A stretch of DNA of 4,914 nucleotides from a virus (lineage: Duplodnaviria > Heunggongvirae > Uroviricota > Caudoviricetes). Positions 460 to 4,830 of the stretch are shown piece by piece. The translations under genes were made by a program, and so were the position numbers. Position 1 is the first letter of the stretch. Every line of letters starts with the position of its first letter. The stretch lies in the IMG/VR virus record IMGVR_UViG_2734482547_000011; one strand, 5' to 3'. Below the pieces are notes generated by a model that was given only the letters and a program-made list of their open reading frames with translations, was not told the origin of the DNA and made no database searches.

Positions 460-795
460 ATGAAGTGGATTGTGATTGATACAGTTATCCAGCCATCATG
501 CGGAATATCTTTTTCAGTCATATGGAGTAAAATAAAATTAATAATCTGGTATCAATCGGATGCTTTCTTACCTCCTGAAAGTATATTTACACTGACTCAC
601 ACAGGCATCATGCTCAATAACAAAGTGCTACCTGTAACCATTTACAACGTAGTACCATTCAATAAAACATTCTGGAATTCAATCAAAAATAGCCAGGAAT
701 GCCCTACAAATACAGATAACGTATTGAATGAATGCTTTAATAACCGTTGCACTCTGCAAATATGTCCTTATGGACTAAAACAACAAAGTCCATAA
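460..795 (+). CDS. Hypothetical orphan protein, 111 aa, AT-rich, with a Cys-containing C-terminal region (moron-like cargo gene)
   Basis: 336-nt ORF in roughly 30-35% GC DNA, where stop codons are frequent, so an open frame of this length is unlikely by chance. AAGGA lies 7 nt upstream of the ATG. It is transcribed opposite to the phage late operon. A perfect 20-bp palindrome follows 36 nt after the stop. The C-terminus has 4 Cys ([26 protein letters not shown]). I recognise no family. Confidence 0.45.
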
Positions 796-1242: not shown

Positions 1243-1596
1243 CTACCCCAGATGAGTAATCCGAAGTTCATCCATACCACAGGTCCTGGCTATTCTGTTG
1301 TACTCCTGAACAAGAGCAAATAATTCTGAATTAGCAACCATGAACTCATCGCAAACCCTCTGTATAGCATCACTATTCAGAATAATAACGTCTCTTCCCG
1401 AAAGACGATCAGGAGTACAGAACAAAACTGTCAAACGGCTGAAGGCCTTTGCTCGTGCTGCATTGACTATATCAATACGCTGCCTAAGGATGAAACACCC
1501 CGACGCCTCATCAATATTCACTCTACCCACACCATATGAATGATAAATATTTAATGCTGAAAAAACCATTAGACCGTATAACAAACACTCAATCAA
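1243..1596 (-). CDS. Doubtful ORF (117 aa from a TTG start, 108 aa from the first ATG); hypothetical or degraded
   Basis: ORF track only. The start codon at 1596 is TTG, there is no convincing SD before either TTG or the first ATG (1567-1569), and I recognise no family. It occupies the position where stx-phages carry cargo. Confidence 0.2.
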   Translation of the reverse strand: MIECLLYGLMVFSALNIYHSYGVGRVNIDEASGCFILRQRIDIVNAARAKAFSRLTVLFCTPDRLSGRDVIILNSDAIQRVCDEFMVANSELFALVQEYNRIARTCGMDELRITHLG

Positions 1597-1706: not shown

Positions 1707-1783
1707 TGGCGCGCTGTACTGGATTCGAACCAGTGACCGATTGCTTAGAAGGCAATTGCTCTGTCCGGCTGAGCTAACAACGC
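1707..1783 (-). tRNA. tRNA-Arg (anticodon UCU), phage-encoded argU-like
   Basis: Minus-strand sequence GCGTTGT-TA-GCTC-AGCCGGACA-GAGC-A-ATTGC-CTTCTAA-GCAAT-CGGTC-ACTGG-TTCGAAT-CCAGT-ACAGCGC-G-CCA folds as a canonical cloverleaf: 7-bp acceptor stem (one G:U), TTCGAAT T-loop, anticodon loop CT-TCT-AA, encoded CCA. Confidence 0.85.
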
Positions 1784-1883: not shown

Positions 1884-1959
1884 TGGTGGCCCTTGCTGGA
1901 TTTGAACCAGCGACCTGGCGATTATGAGTCGCTCGCTCTCACCACTGAGCTAAAGGGCC
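1884..1959 (-). tRNA. tRNA with CAU anticodon, most similar to tRNA-Ile2 (lysidine, reads AUA)
   Basis: Minus-strand GGCCCTT-TA-GCTC-AGTGGTGA-GAGC-G-AGCGA-CTCATAA-TCGCC-AGGTC-GCTGG-TTCAAAT-CCAGC-AAGGGCC-A-CCA; canonical cloverleaf with one A:C mismatch closing the anticodon stem. Closely resembles my recollection of E. coli ileX. A tRNA-Met assignment cannot be excluded from sequence alone. Confidence 0.8.
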
Positions 1960-1961
1960 GG

Positions 1962-1998
1962 GAGCAGAATAATAACGGTCCGTAATTAATTCCGCAAT
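1962..1998 (-). promoter_or_regulatory. Weak candidate promoter in front of the tRNA cluster
   Basis: On the minus strand: TTGCGG, 17-nt spacer, TATTAT, then 9 nt to the mature tRNA 5' end. The -35 hexamer is poor (3 of 6) and overlaps the terminator U-tract. Confidence 0.2.
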
Positions 1999-2022
1999 AA
2001 AAAACCCGCTCGGCGGCGGGTT
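1997..2022 (-). terminator. Rho-independent terminator downstream of the Q-like gene (tR'-like position)
   Basis: Minus strand reads AACCCGC-CGCCGA-GCGGGTT followed by TTTTTTATTG: a GC-rich 5-7-bp stem plus a six-T run, about 40 nt after the Q-like stop codon. Confidence 0.6.
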
Positions 2023-2061
2023 GTAGAAACTCTTCTAACGTCAGGCATAAAACGCCCATAG

Positions 2062-2916
2062 TTATGACGAATTTACCACAGATTCCGGAAAAATCAACCT
2101 AGTTACCTTTTTTAACTGCCGCTCAGCCCATGCTTCTTCAATATCAAACCGAGTCACCAGCGCATCATAGAATTTCTTAACTGTTTTTTCCCATGACGCG
2201 CGTGTTATCTGGTTTGTCACCTCGCATATAGCATTAAATGCCTCCGTTGATGGTAGTCTTTCATAGCCACGACCACCACAACGCTGGCAGTCTCTGATAA
2301 CAGGCATACCACGTTTTACCGACTCTTCACGATGAATGGCGACACCACGCCCACGGCAATCCTTACAGGCGGTGGAAACCTCACCCTTTCCGCCACACTC
2401 CGGACAGGCAACTTTTACCACCTCCCTGACTTTTTTCCATTCTTCCCAGTAAGACGGATACACACCTTTCGTACACTTTGCCCATACCGGCGGCTTACCA
2501 TCCGGATACTGGACCTTGTTTGTAAAAACTACGCTTTCAATAAATTTTTCCCCATAGCAACAAGGGCACTGCTTTTTACTCGCTGCGCTGCGGGCATAAT
2601 CCTCAAAAGCGTACGAAGCCATAATGCGCATCACTACCGGTTTTATTTCTGCCGGAAGTTTTCTCAACGCCGCCACACGATCGCACCGACTGAGTGCATA
2701 ATCTGCCAGTAATTCTGTTGCCCGCGCCCTGTCATTCATACTGATGCCCATTTTCCCCAGGAACGCAGAAAACCCCATCTCAGCCCGATTCTGTGTCATG
2801 CCCTGCGCGGCCATCACATCAGTGATACTCAGCGCATCTTTTGACGTTGAGGCCGATGCATCGGTCAGGCAAGGGGATTTTGGGGAGTAGTATTTCGGTA
2901 AATCTTCCAGTTTCAT
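2062..2916 (-). CDS. Phage late-gene antitermination protein Q-like, 284 aa, with three CxxC-G-x-G zinc-knuckle motifs
   Basis: Canonical ATG with a 4-nt ATGA overlap onto the rusA stop. Position (after rusA, before terminator and tRNA cluster) matches lambdoid Q. Motifs CPECGGKG, CKDCRGRG and CQRCGGRG indicate a zinc-binding domain. Functional call is from gene order and recalled family features, not a search. Confidence 0.6.
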   Translation of the reverse strand: MKLEDLPKYYSPKSPCLTDASASTSKDALSITDVMAAQGMTQNRAEMGFSAFLGKMGISMNDRARATELLADYALSRCDRVAALRKLPAEIKPVVMRIMASYAFEDYARSAASKKQCPCCYGEKFIESVVFTNKVQYPDGKPPVWAKCTKGVYPSYWEEWKKVREVVKVACPECGGKGEVSTACKDCRGRGVAIHREESVKRGMPVIRDCQRCGGRGYERLPSTEAFNAICEVTNQITRASWEKTVKKFYDALVTRFDIEEAWAERQLKKVTRLIFPESVVNSS

Positions 2917-3664: not shown

Positions 3665-3820
3665 TAGACTGGCCCCCTGAATCTCCAGACAACCAGTATC
3701 ACTTAAATAAGTGATAGTCTTAATACTAGTTTTTAGACTAGTCATTGGAGTACAGATGATTGATGTCTTAGGGCCGGAGAAACGCAGACGGCGTACCACA
3801 CAGGAAAAGATCGCAATTGT
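3665..3820 (+). mobile_element. IS2 left-end fragment (156 bp: terminal inverted repeat plus the first ~21 codons of insC), truncated
   Basis: Identical over 156 bp to the IS2 end at 4374-4529 (TAGACTGGCCCCCTGAATCTCCAGACAACC...), then diverges at 3821. Confidence 0.85.
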
Positions 3821-4143
<323 letters not shown>

Positions 4144-4373
4144 NNNNNNNNNNNNNNNNNNNNNNNNNNNNNNNNNNNNNNNNNNNNNNNNNNNNNNNNN
4201 NNNNNNNNNNNNNNNNNNNNNNNNNNNNNNNNNNNNNNNNNNNNNNNNNNNNNNNNNNNNNNNNNNNNNNNNNNNNNNNNNNNNNNNNNNNNNNNNNNNN
4301 NNNNNNNNNNNNNNNNNNNNNNNNNNNNNNNNNNNNNNNNNNNNNNNNNNNNNNNNNNNNNNNNNNNNNNNNN
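4144..4373. other. Assembly gap (230 N)
   Basis: Uninterrupted run of N; the flanking sequences are both IS-derived repeats. Confidence 0.99.
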
Positions 4374-4464
4374 TAGACTGGCCCCCTGAATCTCCAGACA
4401 ACCAGTATCACTTAAATAAGTGATAGTCTTAATACTAGTTTTTAGACTAGTCATTGGAGTACAG

Positions 4465-4830
4465 ATGATTGATGTCTTAGGGCCGGAGAAACGCAGACGG
4501 CGTACCACACAGGAAAAGATCGCAATTGTTCAGCAGAGCTTTGAACCGGGGATGACGGTCTCCCTCGTTGCCCGGCAACATGGTGTAGCAGCCAGCCAGT
4601 TATTTCTCTGGCGTAAGCAATACCAGGAAGGAAGTCTTACTGCTGTCGCCGCCGGAGAACAGGTTGTTCCTGCCTCTGAACTTGCTGCCGCCATGAAGCA
4701 GATTAAAGAACTCCAGCGCCTGCTCGGCAAGAAAACGATGGAAAATGAACTCCTCAAAGAAGCCGTTGAATATGGACGGGCAAAAAAGTGGATAGCGCAC
4801 GCGCCCTTATTGCCCGGGGATGGGGAGTAA
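4465..4830 (+). CDS. insC: IS2 transposase OrfA (InsC), 121 aa
   Basis: Translation [56 protein letters not shown]... matches recalled IS2 InsC. True start is the ATG at 4465, not the upstream ATG at 4420 used in the ORF track. Confidence 0.9.
4782..4788 (+). promoter_or_regulatory. Programmed -1 ribosomal frameshift site A_AAA_AAG (IS2 OrfA to OrfAB)
   Basis: The heptamer A AAA AAG is in the insC zero frame, and the -1 frame continues open as [42 protein letters not shown] (InsD N-terminus). Confidence 0.8.

Follow-up and report, generated by a model that had tools for sequence, protein, structure and literature searches.

The open reading frame at positions 2062..2916 (minus strand) of the stretch of DNA analysed here (the window, 4,914 nucleotides of IMG/VR record IMGVR_UViG_2734482547_000011) very probably encodes a lambdoid prophage's antiterminator of late genes, Q, which by homology would act by the lambda-type mechanism. 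Its long architecture with four cysteine knuckles is, as judged from sequence comparison, the standard architecture of the Q-lambda family. Gene, family and mechanism are known and annotated already, and databases list the exact protein of 284 amino acids under the name 'antitermination protein [Shigella sonnei] / MULTISPECIES [Shigella]'. Family and mechanism being textbook knowledge, the discovery value is small; it lies in a common, predicted second zinc module and in the Shigella allele described below. The gene and its neighbour are located as follows.

2062..2916, minus strand: Q antiterminator gene of the Q-lambda family (ORF list, PF03589, phmmer, Foldseek); the normal form has 273 amino acids
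2913..3287, minus strand: rusA, 124 amino acids, directly upstream of Q (PF05866, E = 1.8e-16)

The frame of 284 amino acids which the original prediction had placed here was found in the ORF list on the minus strand, with 284 codons and a stop codon that lies inside the coordinates. The start codon ATG of Q (2916-2914) overlaps the stop codon TGA of rusA (2915-2913) as ATGA, an arrangement compatible with the translational coupling to rusA that had been proposed.

The protein matched the Pfam family PF03589 (Antiterm) with 183.6 bits (cut-off 26.7 bits, E = 7e-55), and lambda Q scored 193.4 bits against the same family, with two matching stretches as in the Shigella Q. The 87-position PF03589 model covers residues 24-111 (2584-2847) and 182-265 (2122-2373) of the Shigella protein; this double match, which is also seen in lambda Q, may go back to an old duplication inside the gene or be peculiar to the model. 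PHROG 127 ('anti-termination protein Q-like') matched Q with an E-value of about 1e-110. In a phmmer search of the PDB sequences the protein matched Q-lambda (7UBM/7UBN chain Q, E = 1.8e-40), with which it is colinear except for residues 114-181: residues 1-113 correspond to lambda 1-113 (84 bits) and residues 182-273 to lambda 116-207. An AlphaFold2 (AF2) model of Q, calculated from 111 sequences (mean pLDDT 76), matched Q-lambda entries alone when compared with the PDB using Foldseek, the top match being 7ubn_Q (E = 8e-13, TM 0.73, about 31 % identity in the Foldseek alignment). [quoted passage not shown] There are three unrelated Q families, Q21 (PF06530), Q-lambda (PF03589) and Q82 (PF06323) (Yin et al. 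2022, PMC9388147), and neither PF06530 nor PF06323 was among the Pfam matches of Q at E ≤ 0.01. The identification as a Q-like antiterminator is thus borne out by PF03589, by PHROG 127 and by the Foldseek matches.

The lambda protein consists of a 'body' (residues 61-113 and 153-207) and a zinc-ribbon 'arm' (residues 114-152), and its N-terminal approximately 60 residues refold into a torus or nozzle in the RNA-exit channel (PMC9388147). The Shigella Q can be divided correspondingly.

2737..2916, minus strand: N-terminal segment, residues 1-60, homologous to the torus/nozzle region of Q-lambda (colinear alignment)
2578..2736, minus strand: first half of the Q body (helices), residues 61-113, aligned to lambda 61-113
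2374..2577, minus strand: module without lambda Q counterpart, residues 114-181, aligned to a gap in lambda Q
2263..2373, minus strand: lambda-type zinc-ribbon arm, residues 182-218, with the tip at 199-203, aligned to lambda 116-152
2098..2262, minus strand: second body half, residues 219-273, with HTH and C-terminal helix, aligned to lambda 153-207
2062..2097, minus strand: read-through tail LIFPESVVNSS and stop codon TAA, resulting from an 8-bp deletion and overlapping pR'

G39 of the nozzle-forming N-terminus is conserved with lambda, and V6 of lambda is replaced by L. The pLDDT of residues 1-30 was low, as expected because the corresponding segment is disordered in free Q. In the body, AF2 helices were predicted over residues 60-108 (pLDDT 87-94) and, in the second half, over residues 223-233 and 239-272. 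The arm cysteines C184, C187, C210 and C213 align with C118, C121, C144 and C147 of lambda and are invariant, as is the arm glycine G203, which is kept in Q; in Foldseek an arm-only AF2 model superposed on the arm of lambda (40 residues, rmsd 1.4-3.2 Å, 39-40 % identity). The tip of the Q-lambda arm contacts sigma region 4, the body and the base of the ribbon contact the beta' zinc-binding domain, and the C-terminal residues 195-207 touch both the torus and the flap-tip helix, substitutions of L202 or T206 abolishing antitermination (PMC9388147). Both of these C-terminal contacts with the flap-tip helix are conserved in the alignment, as L268 and T272. The other flap-tip-helix contacts of lambda, C53, H56 and L58, are L53, M56 and I in the Shigella Q, and the arm-tip residue E134 is V200, so the details of the contacts may differ from those of lambda.

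Four knuckles were found in Q: C117-P-C-C120-YGEK, C171PEC174GGKG, C184KDC187RGRG and C210QRC213GGRG. The first is degenerate in the Shigella protein and has the form CxxCxGxG in relatives. Knuckles 3 and 4 correspond to the Cys4 site present in lambda itself, and knuckles 1 and 2 lie inside the 114-181 block. Each of the eight paired cysteines is kept in at least 114 of the 116 full-length relatives in the alignment (at least 98 %), and this near invariance indicates that the motifs are real and under selection rather than due to chance. Three CxxC knuckles in the C-terminal half had been predicted; their position was correct and their number was not, there being four.

The knuckles had also been described as DnaJ-like, a description that holds for the motif but not for a domain or fold. 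The CxxCxGxG motifs gave a match to the DnaJ cysteine-rich family PF00684 with E = 1.2e-6, at 29.2 bits below the cut-off of 32.7 bits, and the inserted module alone gave 11.6 bits; a similarly weak match was obtained with lambda Q, through its single zinc ribbon. With the NCBIfam model TIGR02349 the best score of Q was 28 bits against a cut-off of 377 bits. Foldseek found no significant DnaJ structure, the best match being DnaJA2 (7zhs, E = 0.5, TM 0.31, rmsd 8.8 Å). A DnaJ-like domain as the family of the protein was rejected, the matches being sub-threshold (Pfam, NCBIfam) or non-significant (PDB and BFVD folds). The source of one homologue calls it 'chaperone protein DnaJ', and one could suppose from this name, the motifs and the weak DnaJA2 match that the gene codes for a DnaJ-type, chaperone-like zinc-finger protein instead of a transcription factor. 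Given the scores below the cut-offs, the equal match of lambda Q, the lack of a J domain and the strong evidence for the Q family, such a protein is hardly credible here, and this reading is effectively refuted already.

The inserted module consists of knuckle 1 (C117, C119, C120), a beta-hairpin (125-136/159-170) with a loop (137-158), and knuckle 2 (C171, C174). In the AF2 model knuckle 1 runs into the long hairpin, the second strand of which continues straight into knuckle 2 (pLDDT of the strands 70-88). The loop is the least conserved part of the protein, with 9 % identity and 40 % gaps, and varies from about 6 to about 55 residues among diverse relatives. Across the family, knuckles 1 and 2 are present either both or not at all. 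From this co-occurrence, the predicted hairpin topology and the pairing of knuckles 3 and 4 alone in lambda, we infer that knuckles 1 and 2 form a second zinc site, i.e. that pairing would be sequential (1+2, 3+4). The module alone matched no Pfam family in the profile search, and an arm-only AF2 model (residues 108-222, pLDDT 81) had no significant fold match over the module in the PDB or BFVD with Foldseek. Nothing describing the extra module of PF03589 proteins was found in the literature searched; in a 2026 preprint on Pas sRNAs, PF03589 appears merely as a neighbouring gene. BLASTP of the insert against the arm gave a weak match of 29 residues (E = 0.007 for that single comparison), which is at most suggestive of an origin of the module by internal duplication of the zinc ribbon.

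The module is located exactly at the junction of body and arm defined by the lambda structures. It adjoins, in the alignment, the positions at which lambda residues 110-112, 117 and 122-126 touch the beta' zinc-binding domain (PMC9388147). It would most likely be a structural strut or an extra contact to the polymerase. The more specific proposal, that it is a second zinc site making its own contact in the loading complex, with the beta' zinc-binding domain, the flap, NusA or upstream DNA, is considered unlikely; if true, most proteins of the Q-lambda family would load on the polymerase, or depend on NusA, in a manner somewhat unlike lambda.

The predicted target of Q is just downstream of the gene, followed by a terminator and tRNA genes.

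2092..2097, minus strand: predicted pR' -35 hexamer TTGATT, in the same layout as lambda pR' (TTGACT) and the annotated phi80 pR'
2076..2091, minus strand: pR' spacer TTTCCGGAATCTGTGG, 16 nt, candidate Q-binding element by its likeness to mEp237 and phi80
2070..2075, minus strand: predicted pR' -10 hexamer TAAATT, identical to lambda
2055..2063, minus strand: predicted sigma-dependent pause element AACTAT then GGG, 6 nt past the -10 hexamer (lambda AACGAT GGG)
1996..2022, minus strand: predicted intrinsic terminator, tR'-like, with a 7-bp GC-rich stem and U tract (terminator scan, RNA fold)
1884..1959, minus strand: tRNA with CAT anticodon, the first gene past the terminator (Met by ARAGORN; Rfam; tRNA-Ile by PGAP)
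1707..1783, minus strand: tRNA-Arg (TCT) (ARAGORN, Rfam, E. coli annotation)
1243-1596, minus strand: ORF of 117 amino acids just past the tRNA genes, phrog_2873 (unknown function, E = 4e-70)

The Q-binding element of lambda sits between the -35 and -10 hexamers. The cassette TTGATT-16-TAAATT-CGTCAT-AACTAT-GGG of the window can be compared with TTGACT-17-TAAATT-TGACTC-AACGAT-GGG of lambda. The spacer TTTCCGGAATCTGTGG resembles the mEp237 spacer TTTCCCGAATCTGTGT and the phi80 spacer TTCGCGGAAAAACTGGA, in the latter of which the Q-binding site is annotated as TCGCGGA, compared to TCCGGAA here. In lambda the Q-binding element adjoins the pause element on its upstream side (PMC9388147). By analogy with these phages we infer that the corresponding elements function as pR', Q-binding element and pause site at the Shigella locus. 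The pause hexamer (2058-2063) differs between loci that otherwise hardly differ: the window has AACTAT, E. coli HM24 AACAAT and mEp460 AATGAT, with A at position 2 and T at position 6 kept in all three loci. The terminator lies approximately 40-65 nt past the predicted pR' start and is identical in E. coli HM24 and mEp460. No Rfam family covers the short pR' transcript. The 117-amino-acid ORF had no Pfam or NCBIfam match, and no gene is annotated at the equivalent position in E. coli HM24.

In this arrangement the HTH body and the zinc-ribbon arm of Q would bind the candidate Q-binding element in the pR' spacer, with RNA polymerase held at the predicted sigma-dependent pause AACTAT, 6 nt past the -10 hexamer. 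Together with NusA, the N-terminal approximately 60 residues would refold as a nozzle inside the RNA-exit channel, where the nozzle of Q-lambda with NusA blocks terminator hairpins (PMC9388147). The terminator at 2022-1996 would then no longer stop the polymerase, which could go on to transcribe the tRNA genes and the remains of the late operon.

The original prediction regarded the protein as a distinct Q lineage, the engagement of which with the polymerase may differ from the characterised types. A separate lineage of this kind, engaging RNA polymerase differently by means of DnaJ-like zinc knuckles, is very unlikely. The protein exceeds lambda Q (207 amino acids) in length by 66-77 residues, and its module both adjoins the lambda residues contacting the beta' zinc-binding domain and has no solved structural counterpart. 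Yet it is homologous to Q-lambda over its full length and colinear with it in the nozzle segment with G39, the HTH, the zinc-ribbon arm and the C-terminal helix with L268 and T272, its promoter and pause have the lambda-type layout, and it does not match Q21 or Q82. The PF03589, phmmer and AF2/Foldseek matches place it in the Q-lambda family, one of the two structurally characterised families, so that a distinct lineage is not supported.

The long form is, moreover, common in this family, phi80 Q with its annotated Q-binding site included. When 1.84 billion cluster representatives were searched exhaustively, only 235 clusters were found. Among the 120 closest clusters at 90 % identity, 110 had a length of 245-285 amino acids. 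Among 34 aligned full-length representatives at 50 % identity, about 28 had the four-knuckle form (approximately 80 % of family clusters) and about 5 the two-knuckle form, lambda Q among them. The four-knuckle form being the family majority, it is lambda Q that appears as the reduced outlier. The structural paradigm thus rests on a trimmed outlier that is the sole solved member of the family, and the common form carries an uncharacterised, predicted second zinc module at the hinge facing the zinc-binding domain of the polymerase. A homologue of 337 amino acids, on a 1.8-kb NCBI contig, starts mid-protein (MRIMASY...), runs through knuckle 2, restarts at approximately residue 20 and continues to the end, and is either a partial tandem duplication of Q or an assembly artefact.

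The difference in length to lambda Q is due to the internal module of 68 residues (114-181). The earlier statement that Q is much longer than lambda Q was therefore correct, although the length of 284 amino acids is itself specific to this allele, the norm being 273. The Q proteins of mEp460, E. coli HM24 and FDAARGOS_944 (98-99 % identical) have 273 amino acids and end in ...KKVTR-TAA. A DNA alignment with HM24 and mEp460 shows that 8 bp are missing from the window at approximately 2100/2101, corresponding to a single copy of the direct repeat AGGTAAC[T/A]; the junction (2100-2101, minus strand) lies between ...GGTAACT and AGGTTGATT. With this deletion the stop codon TAA behind ...KKVTR is lost and LIFPESVVNSS is appended, which results in the 284-amino-acid form. 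The extended frame crosses the -35 and -10 hexamers of pR' and stops at the TAA at 2064-2062, overlapping the predicted pR' start site. All 115 full-length homologues in the 116-sequence alignment end at ...TR or ...TQ, the deletion and tail being unique to this allele, and the tail is predicted to be disordered (AF2 pLDDT below 50). By this 8-bp slip the C-terminus of a regulator has become fused to the promoter region that it targets, a modest experiment of nature on how far changes at the Q C-terminus are tolerated.

In Shigella chromosomes the Q locus has IS21 on its upstream side and, approximately 2 kb downstream, an element of the IS3 family. No holin, lysozyme, other lysis or structural genes were found at this IS-bounded locus, and the present activity of Q is therefore uncertain. 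In an E. coli prophage that is intact, genes for esterase, holin and lysozyme follow the corresponding Q-tRNA unit. Nested IS debris replaces the prophage replication genes. A perfect direct repeat of 156 bp is present at 3665-3820 and 4374-4529, the first copy truncated; each copy consists of an IS end and the start of an IS3-family orfA (HTH_Tnp_1), and the copies are separated by a C-terminal fragment of IstB_IS21 (3882-4142, minus strand) and, at 4144-4373, by sequence masked as N. The iraM anti-adapter gene (460-795, plus strand; PRK09919, E = 4.7e-48) is on the opposite strand in the prophage late region, a placement also seen in E. coli prophages, and a match to the STnc100 sRNA (RF02076, 821-1010, minus strand, 132 bits, E = 5e-30, Rfam) lies between DUF3927 and iraM. 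An IpaH-type effector gene with LRR_TTSS and NEL E3 ligase domains (L009 1156-2907) is located approximately 7 kb upstream of the Shigella Q remnant.

It is possible, though less likely than not, that the Shigella gene is a decaying relic which no longer codes for a working antiterminator. The added tail, found in no other of the 116 homologues, abuts the residues equivalent to L202 and T206, in the very segment that touches the flap-tip helix and torus in lambda, and by analogy could impair the allele; IS insertions have removed the late operon. The frame is, however, otherwise intact, with few substitutions compared to the Q of the active phage mEp460, and the 284-amino-acid allele is kept, and fixed, in Shigella (at least 1000 contigs). 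The pR' promoter, pause element and terminator are intact in the DNA alignment, and a tail predicted to be disordered may be tolerated.

Compared with known systems, Q shares with the DnaJ cysteine-rich domain (PF00684) four glycine-rich knuckles of the CxxCxGxG type, presumably binding two zinc ions. The knuckles of DnaJ structures pair in a nested manner (1+4, 2+3), unlike the sequential pairing predicted from the model of Q, which also has no J domain. The Q of phi80 (gp17, 269 amino acids), reportedly studied experimentally by Guo and Roberts in 2004, is 41 % identical to the Shigella Q from end to end, with the inserted module and the four knuckles present in both, and in the phi80 GenBank record pR' is annotated together with a Q-binding site within the promoter spacer; phi80 Q differs in having CxC instead of CxxC in knuckle 3 and a normal C-terminus, ...KVTR. 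The closest relatives, mEp460 Q and the E. coli prophage 'antitermination protein' (both 273 amino acids), are 98-99 % identical in protein and nearly identical in the pR', terminator and tRNA sequence downstream, whereas they have kept the 8 bp and the TAA and differ by 1-2 bases in the pause hexamer (AACAAT, AATGAT). Lambda Q (207 amino acids; PDB 4MO1, 7UBJ-7UBN) has in common with the Shigella protein the PF03589 family, the nozzle segment, the four-helix HTH body, the Cys4 arm and the C-terminal helix, as well as the gene position and the cassette of pR', -10 hexamer, 6 nt and AACNAT-GGG pause followed by a terminator. It has no equivalent of residues 114-181 with knuckles 1 and 2 and the beta-hairpin, carries E134, C53 and H56 in place of V200, L53 and M56, and has a pR' spacer of 17 nt instead of 16 nt with a different Q-binding element sequence.
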